Source of the DNA: Eubacteriales bacterium
GTDB lineage: Bacteria; Bacillota; Clostridia; Oscillospirales; CAG-272
Assembly: GCA_045636605.1 (NCBI GenBank)
Contig: JAZTXV010000017.1
Coordinates: 62,614 to 126,613 of the forward strand
Reading direction: 5' to 3'
Length of the DNA: 64,000 nucleotides
Position numbers and translations under genes: made by a program. Under the pieces are notes generated by a model. The model saw only the letters and a program-made list of their open reading frames with translations, ran no database searches and had not been told where the DNA came from. Each line of letters opens with the position of its first letter. Position 1 is the first letter of the stretch. Shown here one piece after another: positions 5,495-34,586 of this stretch.

Positions 5495-5577
5495 ATATTG
5501 TCCTTTCGTGTGGGGCTGTATCACGGAATACGCCGTGACAGAGCCCCCTGTAAAAAGCAAAATTAAGTTAGCGGCAA

Positions 5578-7779
5578 TTAGTCCTCAGATGGATAGAAGG
5601 CGCCGTAGCGCATAGAGCCACGAACAGATGTGCCACCGTCAATGAGCTCAAGAGAATCGCTATCCTTGAAATCTCTGAACATTCCCGTGTAGGTATGACC
5701 GTCACTTGATATGTAAACGCCCTTTCCAAGCCACTTGCCGTATGACCAGAAGCCGTTATATATATCTCCGCTTGCATAGCGCATCAAGCCCTTGCCGTGA
5801 GGCTGTCCGTAGTTGTTTCTTGCGCCCTCGTATGTGTCCTCGGCGGGTGGGGGCAGAGAGGAGTCGGGAATTTCAATTTCTGCATCATCGTCGGATTCCT
5901 CGTCGCCAAAGCCGCTAAGAATACCGAAGCCGTCATCGTCGTCATCATCGTCATCGGAGAAGAAGCTCATAAAGCCCTTGCCCGATTCCTCCTCGTTACG
6001 CTTAACGGGAGCCTCTGATGAAGCTGCGGTGCCTGATGTGAATACATCGTCATTTGTCTCAACGGGAGTGTTGACGGGCTCGTTCATCACAACATCGTCA
6101 ACGGGTGTGTCGAAAATTTCATCGTCGATCTCCTCGACGGAAATTACGGGAGCCTTTGCGCTCGGAGTCGGACGTGACGGTGCGTGGATTGCACCAGGTC
6201 TTGACATAGGAGTCTTTGTTCCCGTGCTGCCCGCAGGTCTTGCAGGTCTTGTGGGTGCCGCAGGCCTTGTAGGAGCGGTCGGAGCAGGCCTTGAAGAAGC
6301 GCTCGGCCTTGAAACAGAGGGCCTTGCAAATGATGAACCCGAGCTCGAAGCGGATGCTGCGGAGCTTCCTTGGAACTCGCCCTCTATCCATTCGCCCTCT
6401 TGAACCGTACCATCGGCAGATGTTAGCTTGCCGAAGCCGTGATAGTTGTCATTTTTGAACTCGCCCTCGTAAACGTCGCCGTCTGCATATACACGTATGC
6501 CGTGACCGTTGAAGTCGCCGTCAACGAATTCGCCCTCGTAGTAGCTGTTTTCGCTCCATACGTACTTACCGAAGCCCTGACGCTTGCCCTCAAAGTATTC
6601 ACCCTCGTAGTAGGAGCCGTCCTCAACCCATACGTATTTACCCTTACCGTGCTGCTTATCGCTTTTCCATTCGCCTATGTAGTAATTTCCGCTTTCCCAA
6701 ACACGCTTACCGTGACCGTTGAAATCGCCGTCAACGAAATCACCCTCGTAGTAGCTGTTCTCGTTCCAAACGTATTTACCCTTACCGCAACGCTTGCCCT
6801 CAACGTAGTCGCCCTCGTAGTAGGAGCCGTCGTCAGCCCAGGTATATCTACCTCTGCCGTGCTGGTTGTCGTCCTTCCATTCGCCGACATAGTAGTTTCC
6901 GCTTTCCCAGACACGCTTACCGAAGCCGTTGAAGTTGCCGTCGGCAAACTCGCCCTCATAGTAGCTGTGCTCATTCCAAGCATAGCAGCCGTGTCCTGTA
7001 CGCTGTCCGTCAACGAAATCACCGTCGTAATAGGAGCCGTCCTCCCAGGTATATGTTCCGCTTCCGTGACGCTTATCATTACGCCACTCACCCTCATAGT
7101 GTGAGCCATCGGGCCACGAATAAACACCGAAGCCCTCGAAGTTACCGTCAACAAACTCACCCTCATATCGCTTTCCGTCGCTCCATTTAAGCACGCCGTA
7201 GCCCTCGGGCCTTCCGTTAGAGCCAACAGGGCCGGTATATGTAGCGCCCGCAAAGGAAATTGTTCTTGACGAGCCTCTTGATGAGTGTCTTGGCGGAGTT
7301 CTCTTTGTCGGTGGCGGAGCAGTCCTTGACGGAACCTTCGCAAAGGAATTTCCGCTCATATCAAATGAGTCCGTTGAGCTGAAATCCTGTGTCCAGTCGT
7401 AGCCGCCATCCTCGGGGACTTCAATCTCGGGCTCGACCAATTCGTCATCGTCGTCATCGTCGTCAAAGTTTTCGACGGTAGTGCCGAAATCGTTCATCCA
7501 ATCGTCGCTTGCGGAGCTGAAATCGTTTGTCCAATCATAGCTCGAGCTTGACGTGCGTGACGAGCCGAACGTATCGTTTGTCCATTCGCCCTCCTGCTCG
7601 GTGCCGTTTGCGAATTTCATTTTGCCGTGGCCGTGTCTTTTTCCGTTTTGCCACTCGCCCTCGTAAACGTCGCCGTTATTCCAATAAAATGTTCCCTTGC
7701 CGTGAGGCTCATCGGCGTCATTAAACTCGCCCATATAGAAGCCGTCGTCGGTTGTGATAGATTTGTTATTCGTTTCCAT
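5578..7779 (-). CDS. MORN-repeat protein with Pro/Ser/Ala-rich and poly-Asp linkers
   Basis: Many YEGE(F/W)xxGxxxGxG units. AAGGGGA RBS. Starts 20 nt after the upstream paralog's stop. Confidence 0.85.
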   Translation of the reverse strand: METNNKSITTDDGFYMGEFNDADEPHGKGTFYWNNGDVYEGEWQNGKRHGHGKMKFANGTEQEGEWTNDTFGSSRTSSSSYDWTNDFSSASDDWMNDFGTTVENFDDDDDDDELVEPEIEVPEDGGYDWTQDFSSTDSFDMSGNSFAKVPSRTAPPPTKRTPPRHSSRGSSRTISFAGATYTGPVGSNGRPEGYGVLKWSDGKRYEGEFVDGNFEGFGVYSWPDGSHYEGEWRNDKRHGSGTYTWEDGSYYDGDFVDGQRTGHGCYAWNEHSYYEGEFADGNFNGFGKRVWESGNYYVGEWKDDNQHGRGRYTWADDGSYYEGDYVEGKRCGKGKYVWNENSYYEGDFVDGDFNGHGKRVWESGNYYIGEWKSDKQHGKGKYVWVEDGSYYEGEYFEGKRQGFGKYVWSENSYYEGEFVDGDFNGHGIRVYADGDVYEGEFKNDNYHGFGKLTSADGTVQEGEWIEGEFQGSSAASASSSGSSFARPSVSRPSASSRPAPTAPTRPAAPTRPARPAGSTGTKTPMSRPGAIHAPSRPTPSAKAPVISVEEIDDEIFDTPVDDVVMNEPVNTPVETNDDVFTSGTAASSEAPVKRNEEESGKGFMSFFSDDDDDDDDGFGILSGFGDEESDDDAEIEIPDSSLPPPAEDTYEGARNNYGQPHGKGLMRYASGDIYNGFWSYGKWLGKGVYISSDGHTYTGMFRDFKDSDSLELIDGGTSVRGSMRYGAFYPSED

Positions 7780-7799
7780 AGCTTTCCCCTTAAATTATC

Positions 7800-9230
7800 T
7801 TAATCGGCACGAAAATCGCCGTCAGTCATCGTTCCGTGTATAGCTCTTCCGTTCAAGAAAAGAGTTACGTTCAAGCTGCGCTTTGTTGACGAGAAGTAGC
7901 CCTTATATACCTTTCCATCGGGCAACGTATATGTGCCCTGCTTGTACCATTCGCCGTAAGCCCAGCCACCGTCATAGGTTGAGCCGTCTGCGTAGAACAT
8001 CTTTCCTCTGCCGTGTGGCTGTCCCTTGAAGTTCTTTTCACCGTCGTAAACGTCGCTTTGCTCGTCGGGAGTAAACTCAAAGCCCGTCATAGAGCCGTCT
8101 GTTTCCCTTCCGCCGATAGTCTTTATAACCATCTCGGACTCTCCGCAGTCGCTCCAATAGCTTGAATAATAGGTAACGCTCTCGCCGTTCTCGGAGGTTG
8201 TATATGTACCCGAGCCACGCCAAGCGCCGTCCTCCCATTCGCCATCAAAGAAATTGCCGTCAGCATATGTGTATTTACCCTTGCCGAAGAAGGTATTTTC
8301 ACGGAAATCACCCTCGTAAACGTCACCGTTTTCCATAGTGAGTGTTCCGTGACCGTTGATTTGGTCGTTTTCGTATTCGCCATCGTAGCTTGAGCCGTCG
8401 GAGAAATTACAGTGCGCCTCTCCTGAGAGCTGACCGTCAACGAATGTGCCCTCGAAGACGTCACCCGAATCCCAGGTCTTTTTACCACGGCCGTTTATAG
8501 CGCCGTTTTCCCAATCACCCTCATAGGTGCATTCGTATTCGTCCCAGCGAATAGAGCCGAAGCCGTGCGGAAGTCCGTCTGAGTTTATCTGTCCCGCATA
8601 GATTCCGCCGTCATATTCGTAATCCTCAACGTCGGAGAGGGAGTCCTCGGAAATCTCCTCAAATTCGTCCTCGTCGTCAACCAAATCGGTTGCCGCATCA
8701 AGAATTTCGTTCTCAAGGTCGGTAAAGTCAAGGCCGTCATCCTCGCCCTCGTCATTATCGGTAACCTCGTTGTACGTGTCGTTGCCCATAGGGAAGTCGT
8801 CAACGTCTGTCGGATTTTCCGCCATTGTTGTTCCGAAATCGTTTGTCCAATCGTAGCCGCTGTCGCCGGAGTCATCGCAATCGTAATCATCGCTTCCGCT
8901 TATCGTGCTATCGTCGCCCTCGTCGTCCTCGTCGTCAAAATTTTCAACGGTCGTGCCGAAATCGTTCATCCAATCGTCGCTCGTGGAGCTGAAATCGCTT
9001 GACCAATCGTTTGAGTTGAACGAGTCGTATGACCATTCGCCCTCCTGCTCGGTGCCGTTTGCGAATTTCATTTTTCCGTGGCCGTGTCTTTTTCCGATTT
9101 GCCACTCGCCCTCATAAACGTCTCCGTTGTTCCAATAAAATGTTCCTGTGCCGTGCGGCTCGTTTGCGTCGTTAAAGTCACCCATGTAGAAGCCGTCGTC
9201 AGTTGTGATGGATTTGTTGCTGCTTGCCAT
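7800..9230 (-). CDS. MORN-repeat protein (paralog, first gene of a three-gene set)
   Basis: MORN units. The N-terminal ~100 aa are nearly identical to the 5578-7779 product. GGGGGA RBS. Confidence 0.85.
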   Translation of the reverse strand: MASSNKSITTDDGFYMGDFNDANEPHGTGTFYWNNGDVYEGEWQIGKRHGHGKMKFANGTEQEGEWSYDSFNSNDWSSDFSSTSDDWMNDFGTTVENFDDEDDEGDDSTISGSDDYDCDDSGDSGYDWTNDFGTTMAENPTDVDDFPMGNDTYNEVTDNDEGEDDGLDFTDLENEILDAATDLVDDEDEFEEISEDSLSDVEDYEYDGGIYAGQINSDGLPHGFGSIRWDEYECTYEGDWENGAINGRGKKTWDSGDVFEGTFVDGQLSGEAHCNFSDGSSYDGEYENDQINGHGTLTMENGDVYEGDFRENTFFGKGKYTYADGNFFDGEWEDGAWRGSGTYTTSENGESVTYYSSYWSDCGESEMVIKTIGGRETDGSMTGFEFTPDEQSDVYDGEKNFKGQPHGRGKMFYADGSTYDGGWAYGEWYKQGTYTLPDGKVYKGYFSSTKRSLNVTLFLNGRAIHGTMTDGDFRAD

Positions 9231-14194: not shown

Positions 14195-16183
14195 TTATGC
14201 TACTGTGTATTCACCAAGGCCTTCCTTGCCTGATGTGATTTGTGCAGGGGTAAGAATGCTTTGAAGCTTAACCGTGTAGAGAACTGTGTCGCCTCTTGTT
14301 ACCTTGCTTGCCATAGGAGACGAGATTGCGGAGTCCTCTGCGCCGACATACTCCTTTTGGAGAAGCTGGGCGGTGCTCATATCGTCATCTGTGTAAGCAT
14401 AGCCTGCAAATACAAGCTCAAGCGATTCGTGACCTGTCATACCGTTAACGGACACATTACAATTCTTGTAAGTGATGTCAAGAGCAACCTGAAGCGCACC
14501 CTTTGTTGCGTTCAATGTGCCGTCTGCATTAAATATACCATCAGAGCCAAGGTACTTAGGATTGAAGATTACAACGCCGAAGCCAACGCTCTTGCCTGTG
14601 AGTGTCTCGTAGGTAGCAAGGCTATCGTGGCTTACCTGGTAGCCTGTTGCAATTCCGTTGTTATCGGGGCCTGCTGAGTAGCCTGATGCGGTAAAGATAG
14701 CAGAGTAGGATGTCTTTTGGTTAGTTGCAGCATTCCAAACGCTAAATTCCTTGTCAAAGCCGTTAAAGGAGATAAAGGTTGCGGGCACGCTTGTGGCTGT
14801 TGCGCCATAGTAAATTGTCTTTGTGCCTGCGTTCTCGGGGTTAAAGTCGCTAAACGGAGCAACACTCCAGCCGCTCCAAGCGCTTGCCATAGCATTGGCA
14901 TCTGCCTCGGTTCCCTTTATGATAAGGTCAGCCTTTGAGGGCTTTGATGTAACAGATGTCCAGTTGCTTGAGGAAATAATATACTTAAGTGAGCCGCAAT
15001 CCACGAATGTGTTGTTGCCGGAGCTTACCATTGTGTCGGGGAATACGATGTATTCGAGATTGTTACAGCTATAAAAGGCACCGTCTGTACCGATGTTGGT
15101 AAGCACCTTGTCAGCCGCACCGTTTTCACCCTTGATTGTACCGTTGAGAATTACAAGGCTTGTGATGTCTGTGTCACGAAGGGAGTTGTTTCCTATGTAT
15201 GTGATTGTATCAAACACAAGGTCGCCTATAATATTCGGTCCCCAGAATGCAGAACTGCCAATGTATGTTATTGTACGGGGAAGACCGTTAAATACAACAT
15301 TTTTTGAAACGCTGTTGAATGCGTATTCGGAAATCATCTCGACATTCTCGGGGAGAATGACGCTTGTAAGGTTTTTACAGTTCTGGAACGCACGAGGTCC
15401 AACATTCTTTAGCGGAGCACCCGACATATCAACGCTTGTGATAAGCGTATCACGGAATGCGTTTTCGCCAAGAGATTTGATGTTTGGTAGCTTAATGTCG
15501 CCTGAAATTTTTGTATTGTAGAAGCCTCTGCCGATTTCTTCAATGGATTCAATGCTGTTTATTGTTGCAAGTGACGAGCAGCCGTTGAATGCGGCGTAAA
15601 TTCTCTTGATGTTCTTAGAGAAAAGAACGGTGTGGAGATTAGAGTCATACTCGAAGCAGTATTGACCGAGCTGGACAACATTGGATTTTGACATATCAAC
15701 ACTCAAAAGTGTCTTTGTATTGTAAAACTCCGCATTGGAAAAGCTTATCTCGGCAGTGTAATCCTCGCCTGTTGAAGGGTTGTAGCCACGAGCCTCAATT
15801 TCAACCGTTTCAAGGCACTTGAGCTGTCTGAATACATGGTTTCCGATGCTTTTGACCGTCTTTGGAATGAATACCGATACAACAGGGGAGTTAGAGCCTC
15901 CGTTTGCGCCAAAGGCACTGTCGGCAACTGCGGTTACAACATATTTTTCGTCGGTTGTGCCGTCGCCGTCCTTATCGTAATTAACGATTTCGGGGATAAC
16001 GACATTGGTAAGAGTACCGCTTGTTCTGTTTTCGGTGTTTACCGTTGCAGTTCCGTCAAAGCCGGGATAAGCGTCGGTTTTGGTGAACGAGTAATAAATG
16101 CCGTCAACCTCAACCGCACTTACACTGACAGCCAAAAGGCAAACAGCGAAAAGCACCGTAACAAAAAGTAGTAGCTTTTTCAT
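14195..16183 (-). CDS. Secreted BspA-type leucine-rich-repeat (LRR_5-like) surface protein
   Basis: Signal peptide MKKLLLFVTVLFAVCLLAVSVSA. Repeated I/LPxxVxxIGxxAFxxCxxL units. Confidence 0.8.
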   Translation of the reverse strand: MKKLLLFVTVLFAVCLLAVSVSAVEVDGIYYSFTKTDAYPGFDGTATVNTENRTSGTLTNVVIPEIVNYDKDGDGTTDEKYVVTAVADSAFGANGGSNSPVVSVFIPKTVKSIGNHVFRQLKCLETVEIEARGYNPSTGEDYTAEISFSNAEFYNTKTLLSVDMSKSNVVQLGQYCFEYDSNLHTVLFSKNIKRIYAAFNGCSSLATINSIESIEEIGRGFYNTKISGDIKLPNIKSLGENAFRDTLITSVDMSGAPLKNVGPRAFQNCKNLTSVILPENVEMISEYAFNSVSKNVVFNGLPRTITYIGSSAFWGPNIIGDLVFDTITYIGNNSLRDTDITSLVILNGTIKGENGAADKVLTNIGTDGAFYSCNNLEYIVFPDTMVSSGNNTFVDCGSLKYIISSSNWTSVTSKPSKADLIIKGTEADANAMASAWSGWSVAPFSDFNPENAGTKTIYYGATATSVPATFISFNGFDKEFSVWNAATNQKTSYSAIFTASGYSAGPDNNGIATGYQVSHDSLATYETLTGKSVGFGVVIFNPKYLGSDGIFNADGTLNATKGALQVALDITYKNCNVSVNGMTGHESLELVFAGYAYTDDDMSTAQLLQKEYVGAEDSAISSPMASKVTRGDTVLYTVKLQSILTPAQITSGKEGLGEYTVA

Positions 16184-18740: not shown

Positions 18741-18769
18741 TTGACTTTTGAAAAATATTGTGATATTAT
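18741..18769 (+). promoter_or_regulatory. Promoter of tRNA-Arg
   Basis: TTGACT, 17-nt spacer, TATTAT. Confidence 0.6.
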
Positions 18770-18789: not shown

Positions 18790-18865
18790 GCGCCCCTAGC
18801 TCAGCGGATAGAGTGCCCGGCTACGAACCGGTAGGTCGAGAGTTCGAATCTCCCGGGGCGCGCCA
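18790..18865 (+). tRNA. tRNA-Arg (anticodon ACG), CCA encoded
   Basis: Acceptor GCGCCCC/GGGGCGC, D arm GCTC AGCGGATA GAGT, anticodon loop CTACGAA, and T loop TTCGAAT. 76 nt. Confidence 0.92.
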
Positions 18866-18873
18866 TAAAGATA

Positions 18874-18907
18874 AAAGGACAGGTTTTTACCTGTCCTTTA
18901 TCTTTTT
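18874..18907 (+). terminator. Terminator after tRNA-Arg
   Basis: aaaggacagg ttttta cctgtccttt stem followed by atcttttta. Confidence 0.7.
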
Positions 18908-18910
18908 ATG

Positions 18911-19075
18911 TCGCACCCTGTCGCTTCGAACCTCCTTCAAAAACGCAACACGTTTTTGAATAGAGTTCGGATGCGAGCAAAAGGCGTTGAGAATTTATTC
19001 TCATAAGCCGTGCGAAGCACATTACCGTCAGGTAATGCATCTCCTATAAAGCACGCAGTGCTTTCGGGGCGCGCA
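18911..19075 (+). repeat. tRNA-Arg-linked structured repeat, unit A (candidate structured ncRNA or att-type relic)
   Basis: Shares conserved blocks with unit B and has four hairpins. Ends in atctcc...cggggcgcgca, resembling the tRNA-Arg 3' end. Confidence 0.6.
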
Positions 19076-19103
19076 GGACTTGCTCCTGTCTTTTTTGTTT
19101 ATC

Positions 19104-19265
19104 TCGCCCTTGGTTCGATTCGACTCTCCTTCAAGGCTTTGCCTTGAATAGAGTTCGCAAGTCCGCCGAAAGCCGTTGTCTGCTTGCAAGCATAAGGCTC
19201 GGCGTGACTCGTTGCCACAGGCAACGCATCTCCTATACAGTGCATCGCACTGTCGGGGCGCGCCA
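19104..19265 (+). repeat. tRNA-Arg-linked structured repeat, unit B
   Basis: Same architecture as unit A with compensatory hairpin changes. Its last 12 nt, cggggcgcgcca, are identical to the tRNA-Arg 3' end including CCA. Confidence 0.6.
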
Positions 19266-19270
19266 AGAGA

Positions 19271-19308
19271 GACTCAGTTGAACACCTAAGGTTCGCTGAG
19301 TCTTTTTT
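19271..19308 (+). terminator. Hairpin plus T-run after unit B
   Basis: gactcag...ctgagtc stem followed by T6. Confidence 0.6.
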
Positions 19309-19334
19309 ATTTTATTATACCGAATTATACACAC

Positions 19335-19366
19335 AGGACAGAGTTTTTCAACTCTGTCCTTTTTTA
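19335..19366 (+). terminator. Second plus-strand hairpin plus T-run
   Basis: aggacagagt ttttca actctgtcct stem followed by T6. Confidence 0.6.
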
Positions 19367-19384
19367 TTTTGTGCTATAATAATT

Positions 19385-20221
19385 TTATTGAGGCAATTTT
19401 CTGCTTCTGTATTTTTGCGGTGAGACTCCAAGATGCTTCTTAAAGAGTCTGCTGAAAAAGTATTGGTCACTGTACCCAACGTGCTCGCTGATTTGCTTTA
19501 TTGACATATTGGTGCTGTCAAGCATATTTTTTGCAAGCCGAAGCCTTAGCTCGATAATATATTCGTTAGGTGATTTTCCCATTTGATTTTTGAATTTTGT
19601 AAAATACCTTGAACAACTTAGTTTTTCAATTTTTGCAAGATAGGGAATATCAATTTTGTTTGTATAAAAGCTATGTATATATTTGAGTGAAGCTTTTAAT
19701 GGAGAAGTGTTGACTTTATCTAATTCGATTTTAGCAATATAAAGAATGATTTCCTGTAAAATAGACGCACACAATTGAATAGCAAGTGGTTCATTTGATA
19801 AAAATGTGTCAATTAGCTTTTTGCACTTATTGTGCATTTCAACACTAAACTCACTATCAATAATGCAGGGCAAATTATTAAATCCACATTCCGTTAAAAA
19901 TCTATCAGCATATGAGCCTGTAAAGTGTATAGATAAATAATAAGTAGGCGGATTTCCGGCAAATTGGTAATGATATTTTGGCGGAAAAATAACAAAATTT
20001 CCTTTTTTTGCAATATAGGTATTTCCGTCAATTACAATAGATAATTCTCCATTAGTAACGAATGCCAAAAAATAATCGTCTCTGCCGATGGAGCTATATG
20101 TCTCGAATGGTGTTCTAACATCATAATGTCCGGCTGTATTTATAAGCAGGGGATAATCGTTTGAGACCTTGCTGTTAAAATACAATAATTCGTCATCAAT
20201 ATATCGTATAATTTTTGCCAT
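19385..20221 (-). CDS. AraC-family transcriptional regulator (N-terminal cupin-like sensor, C-terminal HTH)
   Basis: The C-terminus ...IKQISEHVGYSDQYFFSRLFKKHLGVSPQKYR is typical of the AraC HTH. Divergent from the 20382 gene. Confidence 0.85.
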   Translation of the reverse strand: MAKIIRYIDDELLYFNSKVSNDYPLLINTAGHYDVRTPFETYSSIGRDDYFLAFVTNGELSIVIDGNTYIAKKGNFVIFPPKYHYQFAGNPPTYYLSIHFTGSYADRFLTECGFNNLPCIIDSEFSVEMHNKCKKLIDTFLSNEPLAIQLCASILQEIILYIAKIELDKVNTSPLKASLKYIHSFYTNKIDIPYLAKIEKLSCSRYFTKFKNQMGKSPNEYIIELRLRLAKNMLDSTNMSIKQISEHVGYSDQYFFSRLFKKHLGVSPQKYRSRKLPQ

Positions 20222-20381
20222 TTTTACCTCTCAATAGTATAAAAATCCATTTTTTAAAATAAGATAATCCATTGCCACGGGACTAAATATATTGTACAAT
20301 AAAATTGGAGAGATGTCAAGTGAATTGAAAACTCCATTCCTATCTATAAACTAAAAACGAATAAATTGTTTTGGAGGAAAT

Positions 20382-23300
20382 ATGAAAAGAAAAATTTTAC
20401 TGTTTTTTGTAACAGCCTTCATTTTCGTGTGCTTGCTTGCGCTTTCTGTCAGCGCTATGTCAGGCTCAGGAACAGAGGCTGACCCTTATGTGGTTGAAAA
20501 TGCAGAGGATTTCGTTTCTATTAAGAATAGCCTTTCGGCTTATTACAGGTTAGATGCAGATATCTCTGTTTCATCAAACGAAGGCGCAATCGTTGAGGGG
20601 CCATTTACAGGCGTTTTTGACGGTAACGGACATACTGTTAATGTAAATATCGTGGGCGCAACAAGTGGCACCAACACATATGATGCACTATTTGGCGTGG
20701 TTGATGGAAACGGCAAAATCAAAAATCTTACTGTAACAGGCGAAATTACCGGCTCAGATAAGGTTGCAGGCGTTGTAGGCAAGCTTGCAGGAAACGCAAA
20801 TGTAGATAACTGCGTAAACTATGCCAAGGTTTCCGGCAGAAAAAATATCGGCGGTATTGCAGGCTTGATTTATTACAGTAATTCAGGCAAAAAAGCTACA
20901 ATTACAAACTGTGTCAATTACGGCTCAATAAATGGCGCAAATCCTATAAAGACGGGACTTGACATTGGCGGTATTGTAGGTTGTATTTGGGAAACGGATA
21001 CATCTATTGTTACTCTTGCAAACTGCTATAATGCAGGTACTATTACCGCAGCGGGCGAAAACTGTGGCGGTATTGTAGGCTTTTCGCAAGCAAAATATTT
21101 TGTAAATTGCTTTAATATTGGCACGGCAAGTGCTACAAGGGGACTTGGCTCAATTATTGGCGCTACCGACGGTAATTATACTCACGATATTAAGGGCTAC
21201 TTTAACGGCACAAATTTAGAGCTTGTAGGCGCAAAATCAGGAACTATCACATCAAGCGGTAACATGATTGAATCAACAGGCGTTGCAATTTATCTTGGCT
21301 CAGGCTCAGGTATTCGTGGCGAGTTCCACTTAAACCAAGAGGTTTACGAAGCATTTTTAACTCTTGTAGGCGGTAAAAATGCTGAATATGGCGCGGTAGT
21401 ATCAACAAAAGATGTTGTTGCAGCGTTAGGTGGCAACATTCTTTCAAAGGAAGCTGAAGAAAGCGGCATGGTTATATTTGCCCCTGCTATGAAGAATGGC
21501 GAAAAGCAATATTTTTATGCTGACCCAGCAAAAGGCGAAGATTACCATTCATACAGATTTGCTTTAACAGGCTTCCCTGACACAAAGCAATCCTATAACC
21601 TTGAATTTGTAATTCTTGGCTATGTTAAGATGACTGATAAAAACGGCAATGATTTGCTACTATGCATAAACACAGTAAAATCCGATAAGCTTGCTGCAAG
21701 CGTTGACGGCACTCCATATAATTCTGTAAATATTGTTCGTGTTGCTGAGATTACAATATCAGACGGCGATTATAAGGATAATGAGGAAATGCTTGGTAAG
21801 CTTGATTACATCGTTAGCAAAAAGGAATACGGCAATAAAATTGAAATTGACGGTATTACAAGCTACGGTCATGCAAACGCTACCTTTACATCACATATTA
21901 GCAGCGGCGATACAGTAGTATTTGAAATTAACAATACATATAGCGATGAGCTTCAGGAATATCAAAATGACCTTGTAGCAAACGGCTATGCTCTTATTAT
22001 GGAAAATCAAATTAACGGAAATTACTTCTATACATACAAGAAGGATAATGCGTTAATTCACATTTCATATTATCCATTAGCAAATGAGGTTAATGTAGCA
22101 AGTGAAACATTAAATAATTTACCTGATAATTTAGCTCAGCCAAGCTACGAAAAGAAGAATAATTCCTCAATTACACAAATTCAACTTGCTGACAATGTGA
22201 CAATTAAGGAAGGCATGTCCTATGTTATTCATTTAGCTGATGGCACATTCTTCATTATCGATGGCGGCTGGTGCTACGATGACTACCTTGAAGCAGATAA
22301 GCTCTACGATATTTTAAAGGAGCTTGCAGGCAAGGATAACGAAATTGTAATCGCAGGCTGGATTTTCACACATTGCCACGGCGACCATATCGGTACGTTT
22401 AACTACTTTGTTGAAAAATACCACGATAGCGTAACGATTAAGGAGCTTCTTTATAACTTCCCATCAGATGATGACATTAGAGCAAGCGAATCAAATTATA
22501 TGCTTAATGACACTAAGCAAAGATATAACTATTTTAGAGAAATGATAGCTACGTACTTAACAGATACAGAAATCGTTAAGGTTCATAGCGGTTATAAATT
22601 CTACTATGCAAATGCAGAAATTGAAATTCTTCAAACCTTTGAGGATTTATATCCAAGCACAGTAGCGAATTATGACTTCAATTCCTCATCTACTATATTT
22701 ACAGTTAAAATTGAAGGACAAAAGATGCTATTTGTGGGCGACGTGTCCGATGTTGGCGCATCACGCCTTAATAAGACATTCGGTAATGCTTTAAAATCCG
22801 ACTTCGTTCAAATAGCTCACCACGGCTTAAATAGCTCAGGCACAATCAAGCAAATGTATATGAATGCAAATGCAACATATGTTTTATATCCTGCGCCAAA
22901 CGAATGGTACAGAAACAATATAAATAACGATGCCAATGCATATATAAACAACAACGAAAGCATTAAGCAAATTTTCGTTTCAGGCTTGCAAACGGTAAAG
23001 CTTTATCTTCCATATGACGGTATGCTTTACGATGGCGAAAGAGTTCCAAAGCCAATCGTTAAAACTGAGGTAGATAGACCTGCAAATACTGTTGAAGTAC
23101 CAGATGCATATTTTGATTTAGATATGACAAACGGTGTAATAACAGATAAAGCAGGCAATGCAACAATAAATGTTACAAACGGCGCAGTTAAGGAAACAAC
23201 AGTAACACATAACGGCGAGGAAAAGACCACAACCGCATTTACTAAGGGCGATGACGGTTATTACTATATGAATGTTAAGTTCAACGAAATTACAACCGAG

Positions 23301-23867
23301 GAGCAAATGAAGAATTTCATAATGGGCTCAACAACCTTTGAAATCTTTTTAAAGCTTGATAAGCTCCCGGGTAGCACCGTAGGACTTATTACATCCTGTA
23401 ACGGTGGTGGCGTAACACTTTACTTGCGTAAACCGGCAGGTGGTCAGCTTAACTTCCAAATCGGCTCAACGAAACCTAATGAAAACGTTGACAGTGGCAA
23501 TAGATATTCTGCGACAGTAGATATGGACGGCTCATATCCTATTGCAGAGGCAGATAAACTGCTACATATCGTTGGTAGTTATGACAGTAAAACAAATATG
23601 ATGAAGCTTTACATAAACGGTATGCTTGTTTCACAGGCAGACTTTGGTAGCGGAAGCTATAATGGTGGCGCAGGCGATGATACCGTAATCGGTATAGGCT
23701 ATAATCCACAGTATAACGAAAACAATGTTGAAGCTATAAGCAAGTACGCAGATTACGAGCTTTACGAGGCTAAAATTTATAACGTAGCCTTAACCGATGA
23801 GCAGGTAGCCCAAGAATATTGGAACTGCATTGATAATTTATTATTTACGGAGGCAGAAAATGAATAA
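20382..23867 (+). CDS. Secreted multidomain protein: GLUG-like repeats, MBL-fold metallo-hydrolase, LamG/concanavalin-like lectin domain
   Basis: Signal peptide. Repeated GG(I/V)(A/V)G...NC(V/Y)N units. THCHGDHIG (HxHxDH) and AHHG motifs. C-terminus LYINGMLV...YEAKIYNVALTDEQV, typical of LamG_3. Confidence 0.75.
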   Translation: MKRKILLFFVTAFIFVCLLALSVSAMSGSGTEADPYVVENAEDFVSIKNSLSAYYRLDADISVSSNEGAIVEGPFTGVFDGNGHTVNVNIVGATSGTNTYDALFGVVDGNGKIKNLTVTGEITGSDKVAGVVGKLAGNANVDNCVNYAKVSGRKNIGGIAGLIYYSNSGKKATITNCVNYGSINGANPIKTGLDIGGIVGCIWETDTSIVTLANCYNAGTITAAGENCGGIVGFSQAKYFVNCFNIGTASATRGLGSIIGATDGNYTHDIKGYFNGTNLELVGAKSGTITSSGNMIESTGVAIYLGSGSGIRGEFHLNQEVYEAFLTLVGGKNAEYGAVVSTKDVVAALGGNILSKEAEESGMVIFAPAMKNGEKQYFYADPAKGEDYHSYRFALTGFPDTKQSYNLEFVILGYVKMTDKNGNDLLLCINTVKSDKLAASVDGTPYNSVNIVRVAEITISDGDYKDNEEMLGKLDYIVSKKEYGNKIEIDGITSYGHANATFTSHISSGDTVVFEINNTYSDELQEYQNDLVANGYALIMENQINGNYFYTYKKDNALIHISYYPLANEVNVASETLNNLPDNLAQPSYEKKNNSSITQIQLADNVTIKEGMSYVIHLADGTFFIIDGGWCYDDYLEADKLYDILKELAGKDNEIVIAGWIFTHCHGDHIGTFNYFVEKYHDSVTIKELLYNFPSDDDIRASESNYMLNDTKQRYNYFREMIATYLTDTEIVKVHSGYKFYYANAEIEILQTFEDLYPSTVANYDFNSSSTIFTVKIEGQKMLFVGDVSDVGASRLNKTFGNALKSDFVQIAHHGLNSSGTIKQMYMNANATYVLYPAPNEWYRNNINNDANAYINNNESIKQIFVSGLQTVKLYLPYDGMLYDGERVPKPIVKTEVDRPANTVEVPDAYFDLDMTNGVITDKAGNATINVTNGAVKETTVTHNGEEKTTTAFTKGDDGYYYMNVKFNEITTEEQMKNFIMGSTTFEIFLKLDKLPGSTVGLITSCNGGGVTLYLRKPAGGQLNFQIGSTKPNENVDSGNRYSATVDMDGSYPIAEADKLLHIVGSYDSKTNMMKLYINGMLVSQADFGSGSYNGGAGDDTVIGIGYNPQYNENNVEAISKYADYELYEAKIYNVALTDEQVAQEYWNCIDNLLFTEAENE

Positions 23868-24018
23868 ATACGTATCCCCTGAAATAGAAATACTAAACGT
23901 TCATAGTGACGACGTAATTATGGCATCAAATGAAGCGGCAGTTACCTACGGCGCTCTTGAGGGCGTTGATGATGAAAATAGCAAGTCCGCAATTTTCAAT
24001 GTAAGTTTTTGGTTATAA
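23860..24018 (+). CDS. Small acidic hypothetical protein (52 aa), translationally coupled
   Basis: GGAGG RBS 6 nt upstream of the ATG at 23860. The ATG overlaps the last 8 nt of the upstream gene. Sequence MNKYVSPEIEILNVHSDDVIMASNEAAVTYGALEGVDDENSKSAIFNVSFWL. Confidence 0.4.
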   Translation: MNKYVSPEIEILNVHSDDVIMASNEAAVTYGALEGVDDENSKSAIFNVSFWL

Positions 24019-24032
24019 TACTAAAATAAACG

Positions 24033-24287
24033 ATGAAAAAACTCATATTATTTTTAACCATGATTATCGTCATAGGACTTATGTCCTGTGGCGGTAACGG
24101 TGCAGATACCGATATAATCATTGATACAAGCACCGACACAACCGTTGACACATCTACCGATACTGAAAATTCCGATTTAAACATGGACTCAGATAATAGC
24201 GATAATAACGGCGGAAACAACGATAATTCCCCTGAGGATAACGACAACGGTGCAAACGATGATTTGTGGACGGACAATAAGCAATAA
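24033..24287 (+). CDS. Small acidic lipoprotein (D/T/N-rich, low complexity)
   Basis: Lipobox MKKLILFLTMIIVIGLMSC|GG. No clear RBS. Confidence 0.5.
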   Translation: MKKLILFLTMIIVIGLMSCGGNGADTDIIIDTSTDTTVDTSTDTENSDLNMDSDNSDNNGGNNDNSPEDNDNGANDDLWTDNKQ

Positions 24288-24331
24288 AAAATATGCAGAC
24301 AAGCAAAAAGCAAGTAAGATGATATAATGAT

Positions 24332-24366
24332 GGTAGACACTAAAAAAGCAGTGTCTACCATTTTTG
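24332..24366 (+). terminator. Rho-independent terminator
   Basis: ggtagacac...gtgtctacc stem followed by atttttg. Confidence 0.7.
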
Positions 24367-24399
24367 TATATACAAAAAGCCCCTCAACCTACTGGTAAG

Positions 24400-24515
24400 G
24401 AGCACACAATATTTCCAAATATATTAAACAGACAATTTAATTCAGACAAGCCTTTACAAAAGATTGTTACCGACGTTACATACATTAAATTTCATGGTAA
24501 GTCTTACTATCTTGT
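24400..24515 (+). pseudogene. IS3-family transposase (OrfB) fragment
   Basis: FPNILNRQFNSDKPLQKIVTDVTYIKFHGKSYYL matches the conserved PNLLxRxF...P(N)xxWvTDiTYi block at the start of the IS3 integrase core. The rest of the gene is absent. Confidence 0.6.
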
Positions 24516-24582
24516 TTATTCAAATGTTTATTTGAGTTTGTTTTTCAAAAAATGCACCCAATCGGGTGTCTTTTCTGTTTAT

Positions 24583-24640
24583 CACGCCCTTGGTTCGATT
24601 CGACTCTCCTTCAAAGCACACGGTGCTTTCGGGGCGCACC
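24583..24640 (+). repeat. tRNA-Arg-linked structured repeat, mini unit C (internally deleted)
   Basis: Its 5' 32 nt are identical to unit B. They are joined directly to a terminal hairpin aaagcac acg gtgcttt and cggggcgcacc. Confidence 0.6.
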
Positions 24641-24652
24641 TTTTTCACTTGA

Positions 24653-24684
24653 TAAAAAAGACAGGCAAATGCCTGTCTTTTTTT
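24653..24684. terminator. Bidirectional terminator
   Basis: agacaggc aaat gcctgtct stem flanked by A6 and T7. Confidence 0.75.
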
Positions 24685-27010
24685 AAATCTTTACAGAAAT
24701 TTCGCTATCGTTGGGGATAAGGAGTGTGCCGAGCTCGCACATCTCGATTTTTGCGCCCGTAACGCTTGTCACCTCGCTTATGGTGCGTAAAAGTATTCTT
24801 GCGCCATTTGGCAATTTGTCAAACGAAAATCTTATTGTATCACCGTTTTTCTCGCCGATTACGGTGAACGCATGCTCGCCATCTGCATCATAAACGGTGC
24901 ATTTTGCATTTTTTGTAAGATTGAACACATGAAGGGTTGTGTTTTGTCCGTAATCGTAATCGGGCACGCAGTTATTAAAGCCCACGGGAAGAATAGTGTT
25001 CTCTCGTACATAAAGAGGTAGCGAGAAGAAATCATAGTTGTCACTATGCCATTTTCCACCGTCAAGGACCTCGTTTGTTAAAAGGTGAGTCCATTTTCCC
25101 TCGGGTAGATAGTAGTCCGCATCTCCGTTTTCGGTAAACACGGGGCAAACAAGCAGGCTCTCGCCAAGCATATACTGTGTATCAAGCGAAAGAGCATTTT
25201 TATCATTTTCAAACTCCAGCGCCATAGCTCTCATAACGGGAACGCCCGTTTTGCTCGCCTCAACGGCTTTTCCGAAAATATATGGCATAAGAGAGCATTT
25301 GAGCTCTGCAAAGTGCTTGGTAACAGCACACGCCTCCTCGCCGTTCGTCTCTCCCTCCTTGCTAAAGAGCCACGGAACTCTGTAAGATGTATCTCCGTGA
25401 AGTCTTGAATGCGTGGATAAAAGACCGAAAGCAACCCAGCGCTTAAACAAATGGTGAGGGGCAGTGTTGGCAAATCCGCTTATATCGTGGCTCCAGAAGC
25501 CAAATCCTGACATACAAAGAGAAAGTCCACCGCGTAGCGATTCCGCCATAGACGGATAGTCGGCAGTACAGTCGCCACCCCAATGAACGGGAAATTTCTG
25601 ACCGCCCACCGTTGCGCTTCTTGCAAAGAGGATAGCCTTGCCCCTGCCCTTGCTCTCCTCGAGCACCTCAAACACGCATTTGTTGTAAAGATATGTATAG
25701 AAATTGTGCATTCTCACCGGGTCGGAGCCGTCAAAATACGACACATCTGTGGGGATTCTTTCTCCGAAGTCGGTCTTGAAGCAATCGACACCCATATCGA
25801 CAAGAGCGCGAAGCTTGCCCTGATACCACTTATATGCATCGGGATTTGTAAAGTCCACAAGTCCCATTCCCGATTGCCATCTGTCCCATTGCCACACATC
25901 GCCGTTAGGTCTGTTCAAAAGATAATTTTTGTCCATAGCCTCGGCAAAAAGAGGAGATTTTTGACCGATATAGGGGTTAATCCATACGCAAATGTGGAGA
26001 TTTTTCTCCTTCATACGCTTAAGCATTGACTTGGGCTCGGGGAACATCGACTTATCCCATTCAAAATTGCACCATTCGTTTTCCTTCATCCAAAAGCAGT
26101 CATAGTGGAAAACGCTAAGAGGAATCTCCCTCTCCCTCATTCCGTCAACGAAGCTTGTTACGGTGCCCTCGTCGTATGAGGTTGTAAAGGACGAGGTGAG
26201 CCAAAGTCCGAAGCTCCACGCAGGTGGCAGAGCAGGGTAGCCCGTTATAGCGCAATAGTTAGAGAGTGCGCCCTTCATATCATCTGCGCCTATTATCATA
26301 AGGTCAATTTTCTCGCCGGGCACGCACATTTGGACTCTTGAAACCTGCTCGGAGCAAACCTCAAACGAAACAGGACCGCTATCGTTTACAAAAACTCCGT
26401 AGCCCTTGCTTGACAGATAAAACGGAATGTTTTTATAGGCGATTTCCGTACAGGTTCCGCCGTCCTCGTTCCAGATGTCAACGCTTTGTCCGTTTTTCAC
26501 AAGCGAGGTAAATCGCTCTCCTAAGCCATAAATTTTCTCCCCTATGTCAACGCTCAGGTGTGCGTCCATATAGGGACTACCGTCCTTTGTAACATATGAA
26601 ATGTAGCTTCTTTCCCACTTTTTCGCAAAGGATGTCAAATATCTGTCATTGTAGTAAAAATCAAATGTTGCGGGGTTCTTGCCGATTTCAAGGCGCATTT
26701 TTCCGTTGGTAACGGTTAAGGAGTCGCCCTTGTCGCATACATCTATCGGGTTGTCCTCTATATTAAGCTCAAATTTCGGCATTTTCTTGCGACTGCCCGA
26801 AAAATGACGAGCCTCTATTCTGAAGGAGTCCTTGCTTGGAGCGGAGATAAAAATTTCTATCATAGCGTCCTCGAGGGCTCTTTTATCCTTGTTATAGCTT
26901 ACTGTGAAAAGATAGAGCGAGCTCGAGTCGGCCCTTACCTCTCTTATTTGCGCTACCTCCATTGTGCTTGTGCCGGGCAAATCCACCCACGCACCGTATC
27001 GTATTTTCAT
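24683..27010 (-). CDS. GH31 glycoside hydrolase (alpha-xylosidase/alpha-glucosidase, YicI-like)
   Basis: KTDFGE and WGGD catalytic-region motifs. 775 aa. N-terminus collinear with YicI-type enzymes. Confidence 0.85.
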   Translation of the reverse strand: MKIRYGAWVDLPGTSTMEVAQIREVRADSSSLYLFTVSYNKDKRALEDAMIEIFISAPSKDSFRIEARHFSGSRKKMPKFELNIEDNPIDVCDKGDSLTVTNGKMRLEIGKNPATFDFYYNDRYLTSFAKKWERSYISYVTKDGSPYMDAHLSVDIGEKIYGLGERFTSLVKNGQSVDIWNEDGGTCTEIAYKNIPFYLSSKGYGVFVNDSGPVSFEVCSEQVSRVQMCVPGEKIDLMIIGADDMKGALSNYCAITGYPALPPAWSFGLWLTSSFTTSYDEGTVTSFVDGMREREIPLSVFHYDCFWMKENEWCNFEWDKSMFPEPKSMLKRMKEKNLHICVWINPYIGQKSPLFAEAMDKNYLLNRPNGDVWQWDRWQSGMGLVDFTNPDAYKWYQGKLRALVDMGVDCFKTDFGERIPTDVSYFDGSDPVRMHNFYTYLYNKCVFEVLEESKGRGKAILFARSATVGGQKFPVHWGGDCTADYPSMAESLRGGLSLCMSGFGFWSHDISGFANTAPHHLFKRWVAFGLLSTHSRLHGDTSYRVPWLFSKEGETNGEEACAVTKHFAELKCSLMPYIFGKAVEASKTGVPVMRAMALEFENDKNALSLDTQYMLGESLLVCPVFTENGDADYYLPEGKWTHLLTNEVLDGGKWHSDNYDFFSLPLYVRENTILPVGFNNCVPDYDYGQNTTLHVFNLTKNAKCTVYDADGEHAFTVIGEKNGDTIRFSFDKLPNGARILLRTISEVTSVTGAKIEMCELGTLLIPNDSEISVKI

Positions 27011-32633: not shown

Positions 32634-34586
32634 TTAATTTTCTGCGTAATAGAAGGTCACGGTCATTGTTTCACTGCCTTGGAACTTTTCGCCCTGTTGG
32701 ATTTCGTAAAGCGCTCCGTTTTCGTCAACGTAGAACTCGCCCTTTGTCACAACAGCTTGAAGCGGATCCTCGAAAATAACACGGTCGTTAATTTCGATAT
32801 AGTTATAGGTGTAGCCGTCGGGAGTTTGCTCGTTATAAATGGTAGCCGTGCCGTCCTCGCCAAAGACAATTGTTGCCTCGGCGGTTGCGTTAAGAGCAGT
32901 CAAGGCGGAGTCGAAATCGGCCTTTGTTTCTGCGTTGCCGATAGCATTTTTCCAATTCTCGTCGGTGATTTGGTCAAGGTAGCCCTGTGATTTGAGATTG
33001 GAGAGCATGCTCCAGAGCCATTCTGTGGAAACGACCTTGGCATCTGTCACAACAACTGTTTTGCCACGGAAATTGTCATTTACGCTTATCCAGAAGGCAA
33101 CCTCGCCGTTTTCGTCATAGTGCCACAGAAGCTCCCTTGAATAGAGATATTCGGAAATCTTTTGCTCGTGTCTTGAATAGAAGAACACCTTGCCTGAAAT
33201 TACGGCATTGAGCGTGTTCCAACGGCTCTCACCGTCCTCGTAGAAAACATATTGAAGCTCACAGCCGTCAAATGCGCTCTCCGATATGCTCGAAACGGTT
33301 GACGGAATAATGATTTCCTCAAGCGAGGTACAGCCATCAAACACCTCGTCACCGATTGTCTTAACGCCCTTAAGAGATATTTCGCAAAGTGCGGAGCAGC
33401 CCTTTAGCGCACCTGCGTCAAGCGCGATAACAGATGACGGAAGGGTGAGGGTTTGAATATCCGTGCCTGCAAGCGCAGTGCCGATTGACACAATGCCCTC
33501 GGGGACAACAACGCTTTGCTGCACGCTTAGCACGCTATGAATTGCTTTAGCGGTAAGGTCATAAAGAATACCGTTTGCAAACGAATATTTTTCGCTGTCG
33601 CTCGGGAGCGTAAGGGTGCTTGGCGTACCGTCAAATGCGCCCATCGCAATTACGGTGTCCTTGCCTAAAATTACAACCTCGTCAACATTTTCGCCAACAA
33701 ATGTGTCTTGCGGAATTGCTATAATGGAGCTTGGAAGTGTAAGAGTGCCAATTGTGCCGTTGCCCGATACGAGCTCTCGCTTTATTTGTGTAACGGGCTT
33801 GAAATTGCACATAGCGGGGATTTCAACGGAGTCTATATCCTCGTCCACCTTTATTTGAATGAGTGTAGTAAAATCCTCATAGTCCTCTGTTTTGAAGAAA
33901 AGTCCGACATAGGTCCATTTTGCGAAAATATCGGTAACTCTGCCGTCAAGCTTGGTGCTTGATGTAAGCGGAGTGGTAAATGCCTCGTCGCAGAAGAGGC
34001 CGTCAAGCTTGTATCCGTTGTGATATAGGTTGTCAAGGCTTGTAAGGTCATTTGGCATAAGACCTGTCTTGATTTCCTCGCCACTAATGAGCGCCTGGCA
34101 TACATATCTGTAAAAATCAATAGCAGATACCTCAAGGGACCAATCAACATTTCCAACCACGATTCCATCAAAGCCGTGAACGGCTATGCTTGAGCTTGAG
34201 TATTGCCAATCAAGAGTGCAGGACGCATAATATTCTGTGAATTTGCCATTTTCGTCCATACCCTCGCTACCCTTGCGGAAGATTGCCTCGGTAAAGGGGA
34301 ACTGCTCACCCGGAGCGACACTGATTCCGCCCTCGGCAAATTCCCAATTAAGGTATTTAATTCCTGCTACCTCGGGTGCGGTAGGTGCGGTTAGTATGTC
34401 ACCTGCATTACAGGTCATCGAAATTACCTCGTCACCTGTTCCTGTAAAGTAGTGAAAATCAATGAAATAACGGGTTGTTACCTCGCCATCGCCACCGCTC
34501 TTATCACCACCGTTATCACAGCCCGCAAAGCAAAGCAGAGTGGCAAGCGCCAAGGCAAGCGCGATTATTATCTTTGTTATTTTCAT
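32634..34586 (-). CDS. BspA-type LRR lipoprotein
   Basis: Lipobox LLCFAGC|DNG. LTLPSSxIAI...F.GC..L LRR_5-like units. Confidence 0.8.
   Translation of the reverse strand: MKITKIIIALALALATLLCFAGCDNGGDKSGGDGEVTTRYFIDFHYFTGTGDEVISMTCNAGDILTAPTAPEVAGIKYLNWEFAEGGISVAPGEQFPFTEAIFRKGSEGMDENGKFTEYYASCTLDWQYSSSSIAVHGFDGIVVGNVDWSLEVSAIDFYRYVCQALISGEEIKTGLMPNDLTSLDNLYHNGYKLDGLFCDEAFTTPLTSSTKLDGRVTDIFAKWTYVGLFFKTEDYEDFTTLIQIKVDEDIDSVEIPAMCNFKPVTQIKRELVSGNGTIGTLTLPSSIIAIPQDTFVGENVDEVVILGKDTVIAMGAFDGTPSTLTLPSDSEKYSFANGILYDLTAKAIHSVLSVQQSVVVPEGIVSIGTALAGTDIQTLTLPSSVIALDAGALKGCSALCEISLKGVKTIGDEVFDGCTSLEEIIIPSTVSSISESAFDGCELQYVFYEDGESRWNTLNAVISGKVFFYSRHEQKISEYLYSRELLWHYDENGEVAFWISVNDNFRGKTVVVTDAKVVSTEWLWSMLSNLKSQGYLDQITDENWKNAIGNAETKADFDSALTALNATAEATIVFGEDGTATIYNEQTPDGYTYNYIEINDRVIFEDPLQAVVTKGEFYVDENGALYEIQQGEKFQGSETMTVTFYYAEN

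Follow-up and report, generated by a model that had tools for sequence, protein, structure and literature searches.

A mosaic of imported DNA between structured tRNA-Arg-linked units in a Clostridia genome

The stretch of DNA analyzed here (the window) is 64,000 nucleotides (nt) of contig JAZTXV010000017.1 from an Eubacteriales bacterium of the Oscillospirales lineage CAG-272, and contains a 5.3 kb insert of low guanine-plus-cytosine (GC) content downstream of a tRNA-Arg(ACG) gene. The explanation that we favor, at a probability of roughly one in two, is that the insert is foreign DNA lying in a tRNA-Arg-linked accretion hotspot, a decayed and rearranged product of accretion, and is not one intact island bounded by attachment (att) sites. 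A sequence-only reading of the same DNA had proposed a single tRNA-targeted island enclosed by 48-nt direct repeats; a foreign, recently exchanged cargo in a tRNA-linked hotspot is retained from that proposal, and what is given up is the identity assigned to the repeats and the unity of the element.

The order along the window is tRNA-Arg, terminator, unit A, unit B, the 5.3 kb insert, terminator and unit C, the units being repeated structured sequences described below. The insert begins about 400 nt 3′ of the tRNA gene, beyond units A and B, and its natural edges lie at 19265/19266, where unit B closes at its 3′ end, and at the terminator that leads into unit C (~24554), in place of the bounds 19135–24566 given earlier.

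Composition and two-source origin of the insert

The insert departs from the rest of the window in composition. The interval 19267–24566 has a GC content of 0.370 compared with 0.464 across the remaining window; along the window, GC is 0.32–0.42 between 19.0 and 24.5 kb and 0.44–0.51 to both sides, with 0.46–0.47 in the two flanks. The same holds for GC at third codon positions (GC3), which is 0.294 in the AraC regulator gene (overall GC 0.326) and 0.348 in the gene for a 1161-amino-acid (aa) surface protein (overall GC 0.389), values that lie 3.7 and 2.8 standard deviations (sd), respectively, below the host mean of 0.512 (sd 0.059; 45 window open reading frames, ORFs). The AT-rich island noted earlier is thus confirmed when GC and GC3 are computed (GC3 0.29–0.35 vs 0.51±0.06).

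There are two segments with different closest relatives. Segment I (19363..20410, − strand) consists of the AraC gene (19385–20221, − strand, identified by Pfam), its terminator, and the divergent intergenic region, and is 95.9% identical to locus L066, although a 26-nt promoter of L066 is missing from the window copy. The AraC gene is divergently paired with a gene for an LRR_5 surface protein in L066, L067 and L062, and is absent from L061. Segment II (20380..24558, + strand) is 98.4–99% identical to L061, a contig of the metagenome-assembled genome (MAG) JAZRIQ, and includes the 1161-aa gene, a 52-aa ORF, a lipoprotein-like ORF, a terminator and a remnant of an IS3 transposase. Homology to L066 continues 29 nt inside the large ORF and homology to L061 begins at its ATG, and the join of the two segments therefore lies in the ~31 nt common to both gene starts. 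The insert is a mosaic of two imports with the composition of relatives of ~38–40% GC, residing in a host of 46% GC, and the single island proposed earlier is not supported: the L066-like AraC segment (96%) comes from a source other than that of the L061-like module.

Several features indicate where segment II belongs. First, two contigs of JAZRIQ have GC contents of 0.39–0.40, compared with 0.46 for the window, and its GH31 gene (L005) is only 79% identical at the nucleotide level (84% aa) to the GH31 gene of the window. Second, the 1161-aa protein has graded full-length orthologues across the clade (98, 77, 74, 70 ... 54% identity), so the main cargo is clade-native DNA moved between relatives. 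Third, the orthologues of the module have GC contents of 0.39–0.40, equal to those of their own genomic backgrounds; the module therefore belongs to lower-GC relatives and reached the window host only recently. Fourth, the three-gene module is kept in L061–L065, with an upstream neighbor that differs each time (AraC, DeoR, GH3, or a surface protein). Finally, the near-identical 4.2-kb copy in L061 adjoins an array of tRNA-Arg-type units, from which it is separated by a fragment of a tRNA-Arg end. A tRNA-Asn gene lies near the module in L064, and its 3′ end is not repeated there. Neither GenBank phages nor PLSDB plasmids gave a match to the island and its units.

The gene content described earlier is largely retained. 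The 1161-aa surface protein (20382–23867, + strand) matches Pfam Lactamase_B, the metallo-beta-lactamase (MBL) domain; the additional domains assigned to it are seen only through other proteins, Laminin_G_3 (LamG) among the domains precomputed for its orthologues, and Glug in partial N-terminal relatives. The 52-aa ORF (23860–24018, + strand) overlaps the stop codon of the large gene and is followed by an 84-aa lipoprotein-like ORF (24033–24287, + strand; a weak NCBIfam lipoprotein match), the terminator of segment II (24329–24362), and the IS3 transposase fragment (~24388–24516; positions 194–236 of 369 in NF033516, E=2e-9).

The 52-aa ORF is itself part of a pattern, since all the orthologous loci examined have an ORF of 50–54 aa that overlaps the stop codon of the large MBL/LamG or LRR_5 surface-protein gene (23860–24018 in the window, 4496–4660 in L061, 6200–6352 in L062, 4622–4786 in L063, 6863–7018 in L064 and 13434–13589 in L065). 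It is a predicted conserved small peptide coupled to the large surface-protein gene. The window peptide starts MNKYVSPEIEILNVHSDDVIMAS, and a similar 35-aa peptide (MKYLTPRYEVSAVETEDILTS) is encoded at 848–955 of L061, 5′ of the large surface-protein gene. Exact-protein look-ups of the 52-aa ORF and of the window GH31 and GH5 proteins returned no record. Elsewhere in the window there are LRR_5 (BspA-type) surface proteins at 14195–16183 and 32634–34586, and three large MORN-repeat proteins in succession (811, 733 and 476 aa; 3125–9230, − strand).

Structured units that copy tRNA 3′ ends

The repeats that bracket the insert are real: the 48 nt at 19087–19134 and 24567–24614 are identical at 46 of 48 positions, as reported before, and the match runs on to 51 nt at 94%. 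A 23-nt repeat core, GGTTCGATTCGACTCTCCTTCAA, is present in exactly two copies in the window, compared with none expected in shuffles. Their interpretation is changed, in that the 48-nt sequences are the 5′ halves of paralogous structured units, one of them (unit C) chimeric and deleted, and are not att-type bounds. Nor do they carry the tRNA 3′ end, as had been supposed; they are not derived from the tRNA, and the copy of the tRNA end sits at the opposite (3′) end of each unit.

The tRNA-Arg(ACG) gene is located at 18790..18865 (+ strand; ARAGORN and Rfam), with a promoter-like site upstream (18741–18769, from a promoter scan) and a bidirectional terminator hairpin (GGACAGG...CCTGTCC, 18874..18899, given no strand) on its 3′ side. 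Its 3′ end is CGGGGCGCGCCA (18854–18865), which contains the 8-bp palindrome GGCGCGCC. Unit A (18906..19076, + strand), of ~170 nt, ends in CGGGGCGCGC (19065–19074). Unit B (19087..19265, + strand) opens with the first repeat copy and ends in CGGGGCGCGCCA (19254–19265), identical to the 3′ end of the tRNA. Unit C (24567..24640, + strand) opens with the second repeat copy, followed by an A-like 3′ hairpin and CGGGGCGCAC (24630–24639), and lacks the ~120-nt core; its B-like 5′ part is joined directly to an A-like 3′ hairpin and end, and it is therefore a chimeric, internally deleted copy. All three units end in a copy of the tRNA-Arg 3′ end, CGGGGCGCGC(CA). The copies at the ends of units B and C flank the insert, yet such unit ends exist without cargo too.

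Terminator hairpins of the form GACAGG...CCTGTC recurrently precede and follow the units, and the hairpin type found at 18874..18899 is also present before or after units at other loci. In the window, a terminator-like hairpin GCACCCAATCGGGTGT (24554..24569, + strand) stands before unit C and is homologous to the hairpin before unit u1 in L061. A terminator on the other side of unit C (GACAGGC...GCCTGTC with a T-run; 24654..24683, + strand) abuts the stop codon of the GH31 gene (24683–27010, − strand). No sigma-70-like promoter was found directly upstream of the units in a promoter scan, Rfam gave no match to them at E<=1, and ARAGORN, including its relaxed, intron and tmRNA modes, made only spurious calls, on which basis intron-containing tRNAs and tmRNA were rejected as identities for the units.

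Homologous units were identified in related Clostridia MAGs and contigs, sampled from about 1.2 Mb of loci. They follow tRNA-Ser(GGA) in L002 and L060 and tRNA-Ser(GCT) in L062; L065 has two units of the Ser(GCT) type, L061 three of the Arg type, and L068 one of the Ser(GGA) type, located where an IMG/VR provirus ends. In L009, tRNA-Arg is followed by an analogue that has diverged further. In every case the 3′ end of the tRNA type to which a unit is linked recurs as the last 10–17 nt of that unit (Arg(ACG) for the window and L061, Ser(GGA) for L002, L060 and L068, and Ser(GCT) for L062 and L065), and the core is common across types. A metagenome scan with a degenerate unit pattern gave a single chance match, in a coding region, and viral scans with unit patterns gave chance matches in L001, L069 and L070 and one real match, that in L068.

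The units have a conserved fold. Pair counts were taken from a six-unit alignment (A2) alone, since the central domain is not structurally aligned in the 9- and 10-unit MAFFT alignments (RNAalifold). In A2 both sides of the pair change in 18 of the 31 predicted pairs, compared with 8.4±2.0 in shuffles, and 89.5% of cells are paired, compared with 71.9% in shuffles and 30–42% in slid controls; none of 500 shuffles reached the observed pairing or covariation values. There are 11 G-U cells and three A-C cells, indicating that the folded strand is the tRNA-sense strand. Pairing of the 5′ strand with the tRNA-like 3′ end of its own type has a predicted energy between −14 and −18 kcal/mol in units of the Arg and Ser(GCT) types, in which the 5′ strand pairs best with its own-type end; in the Ser(GGA) units this pairing is weak. 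The units are thus a conserved structured family with a multi-stem, covariation-supported fold, tied to tRNAs.

Junctions and alternative explanations

The left junction carries a short motif, GTGTTCAACTGAGT (19272..19285, − strand), which is 7 nt away from where unit B finishes in its palindromic tRNA-like sequence and lies inside a hairpin (19275–19299) that is followed by a T-run. The motif GTGTTCAACTGAG is found 7–8 nt from a tRNA 3′-end copy in three genomes (the window, L061 and L065). At the right end, the near-identity to L061 stops at '...aaaaaatgcacc' (24558). Beyond the equivalent point, L061 has ~158 nt that include the motif GTGTTCAACTGAGG, then 8 nt, and then a tRNA-Arg end fragment, GGCGCGCCA, followed by a hairpin, cacccaatcgggtgg, and three units. 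The window lacks those ~158 nt, including the motif and the copy of GGCGCGCCA, and passes directly to the homologous hairpin and unit C; the right end of the insert resembles a junction from which attR has been deleted. About 700 nt past its three-unit array, L061 encodes (6706–7458, − strand) an IS200-like Y1 transposase that is RAYT-like and has a C-terminal helix-turn-helix.

Related sites carry mobile DNA or its traces. In L065 the motif lies 8 nt from a degenerate tRNA-Ser end beside an N-terminally truncated tyrosine integrase, and the order onward is terminator, unit, one-gene cassette, terminator and second unit. In L068 the provirus ends in a copy of the tRNA-Ser(GGA) 3′ end, after which come a terminator and a unit. 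L060 (389–3460) contains tRNA-Ser(GGA), a terminator, the opening ~30 nt of a unit, a GmrSD gene with a 120-aa ORF, and then a tRNA-end remnant, the same terminator and a full unit; the defence gene thus lies between direct repeats of ~110 nt made up of the tRNA-Ser end, the terminator and the 5′ part of the unit, and the repeat stops in the 5′ strand of the first inner hairpin, a few nucleotides from the end point of the 48-nt repeat in the window. Taken together with L061, these loci show mobile DNA integrating at these tRNA ends and cargo building up between the units.

Two further arrangements were seen in these genomes. L024 (3059–330, − strand) contains tRNA-Ala(CGC) and, beyond it, three or more direct repeats of its final ~60 nt, each closing a single-gene cassette of 0.7–1 kb (a GNAT acetyltransferase, an ADP-ribosylglycohydrolase and a small protein); some cassettes also have a degenerate piece of the tRNA 5′ end, and there is no integrase in the 3 kb. 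L065 (18420–18190, − strand) and L071 (1–140) have arrays of short variable GC-rich hairpins with a constant short motif between them (GATGATAT in L065, TCATGA in L071), located 5′ of a cassette gene in L065 and at a contig end in L071.

The favored course of events would be as follows. A module-bearing element would have integrated site-specifically at a tRNA-like 3′ end in the tRNA-Arg unit array, with the end of a unit acting as secondary attB. The recombinase, which was probably of the tyrosine integrase type, would have acted in trans or have since been lost. The insert would then have lost its attR region, its left part would have given way to the AraC segment by homologous crossover within the ~31 nt common to the surface-protein gene starts, and one motif-bearing arm would have become inverted at the palindromic GGCGCGCC.

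Several observations weigh against this account. First, the insert is not enclosed by a clean pair of att repeats, and the window lacks the attR that L061 would lead one to expect. Second, the motif beside unit B is reversed relative to L061 and L065. (A simple inversion of an L061-like element was considered as the cause and rejected, because the orientation of the module relative to the units is the same in the window and L061; with the palindrome GGCGCGCC as the crossover center the orientation of integration would not be fixed, which may explain the presence of the motif in both orientations.) Third, two junctions, at the ORF start and at 'cacc' (24558), resemble homology or microhomology events. 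Fourth, Pfam scans identified no recombinase or integrase among window ORFs of at least 120 aa or among the island ORFs, in agreement with the sequence-only reading. Fifth, no same-species contig was found to span the site: the closest same-species contig (L059, 97.7% nt identity) stops inside tRNA-Arg, and L071 and L072 stop before the tRNA region. Finally, the assignment of L061 to a different species depends on MAG binning.

The alternative that survives best, although we consider it unlikely, is that homologous recombination alone is responsible, with DNA of a low-GC relative patched in by RecA-type crossovers and the units serving merely as portable homology. The joins do fall in common sequence (the 31 nt at 20380–20410, the right-end hairpin 'cacccaatcgggtg' and the 48-nt unit repeats), both donor-like loci have units or homologous genes, and the ORFs scanned in the window include no recombinase. 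However, the units of L061 are only about 77% identical to those of the window and would be a poor substrate, and the fixed spacing of 7–8 nt between motif and tRNA end in three genomes, the attR of the provirus and the integrase remnant indicate site-specific integration.

An assembly artefact, in which sequences of low-GC relatives are mis-joined at short common repeats of a metagenome contig, seems distinctly improbable. Every relative found is a MAG or metagenome contig, the insert is 96–99% identical to contigs of other, lower-GC organisms, and the public contigs L059, L061 and L071 start inside or beside the tRNA/unit region, breaks that are consistent with repeat-induced assembly failure or with population heterogeneity. 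Such an artefact would nonetheless require three successive chimeric joins at no more than 31–48 nt followed by a return to the same host, the GH31 gene adjoins a tRNA and unit in L002 as well, identity to the other contigs is below 100%, and the 26-nt and 158-nt differences resemble real indels.

Still less probable, to the point of being very doubtful, is vertical inheritance of native DNA between two paralogous RNA genes, with a low GC content due to gene type. The grading of module orthologues across the clade fits this, as does the fact that in L062 and L065, too, only a few kb separate the module from tRNA or unit sequences; against it are GC3 values 2.8 and 3.7 sd under the host mean where orthologues match their own genomes, the contrast of 98–99% identity to the L061 contig with only 79% for GH31 of the same MAG, and a different upstream neighbor in every genome examined. 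Insertion by IS3 as a composite transposon, already disfavored, is hardly credible, since despite the transposase fragment at the right end only about 43 transposase codons remain, a repeat search revealed no second IS copy, neither inverted repeats nor a target duplication were seen, and the same fragment lies at the same place in L061 and is thus older than the transfer.

Relation to known systems and significance

Accretion at att sites is an established process, and the favored account is in line with the accretion and decay known from such sites (PMC5704250; tycheposon preprint). The succession of tRNA, units A and B, cargo and unit C fits the geometry of accretion and of the cis-mobilizable elements (CIMEs) related to ICESt1-type islands (PMC5704250), if the unit ends are read as putative att sites. 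Common features are a position 3′ of a tRNA gene whose 3′ end is present in repeated copies, foreign cargo lacking integration genes, tandem slots, and decay and rearrangement. In contrast to CIMEs, the window has 48-nt repeats that do not act as att cores, an attR that is apparently lost and a mosaic cargo from two sources, and the slots are parted by a covarying ~170-nt unit with a terminator, which is not described for CIMEs. The tycheposons of Prochlorococcus (bioRxiv 10.1101/2020.12.28.424599) likewise occupy tRNA-proximal hotspots in which successive integrations push older elements inwards, with partial tRNAs and fragmented integrases dispersed in the island. They belong to another phylum, however, no tycheposon integration or replication module is seen in the window, and the window repeats are structured units in which the mimicry is confined to the last 10–17 nt of the tRNA and a complementary 5′ strand pairs with that end.

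Integron arrays with attC sites, including clusters of attC sites lacking integron-integrases (CALINs), resemble the units in having site-like repeats that separate cargo, a structure kept more than sequence, folding of one strand, and arrays that may be without an integrase. The window differs in having no IntI among the ORFs scanned and unit ends of the form CGCCC...GGGGCGCGCC without R″/R′ (GTTRRRY) boxes; in addition its cargo has its own promoters and regulators, and the units are tied to a tRNA, copying its 3′ end. With tRNA-like RNAs (tmRNA, viral tRNA-like structures, YrlA and mascRNA) the units have in common an acceptor-like closing stem whose 3′ strand is a tRNA 3′ end, an end sometimes carrying CCA, and a T-arm-like sequence, AGAGTTCG. 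Unlike these RNAs, they are unrecognized by ARAGORN and Rfam, and have no intact T arm, a core of ~75–120 nt inserted, a terminator before each unit and no promoter upstream. The island arrays of Dehalococcoides target ssrA, the tmRNA gene, and have integrases, and we know of no structured unit described between their slots. These ssrA-targeted arrays are a further system related to the window locus (PMC3146451).

A bolder interpretation, which we regard as speculative and rather improbable, is that the units are a new class of structured element, either RNA or folded single-stranded DNA, that serve as secondary attachment sites, the closing helix being a single-strand reconstruction of the duplex found at the 3′ end of the neighboring tRNA. 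They would then form a tRNA-anchored, integron-like platform for cassette capture 3′ of Arg-ACG, Ser-GGA and Ser-GCT genes, served by recombinases in trans, and the 5.3-kb insert of the window, the GmrSD cassette of L060 and the cassette of L065 would be captured cargo.

Considered as an island the finding is routine, with gut Clostridia exchanging a regulator and a surface-protein module at a hotspot beside a tRNA gene. What is unusual is the scaffold: a conserved, covarying unit that mimics tRNA ends is present behind three tRNAs in several uncultured species, is absent from Rfam, and coincides with break points of public assemblies in this region. Should the units prove to be regulatory RNAs or sites of recombination, the build-up of cargo without an integrase beside tRNA genes would be explained, and they would also provide a sequence handle for spotting such hotspots in MAGs.

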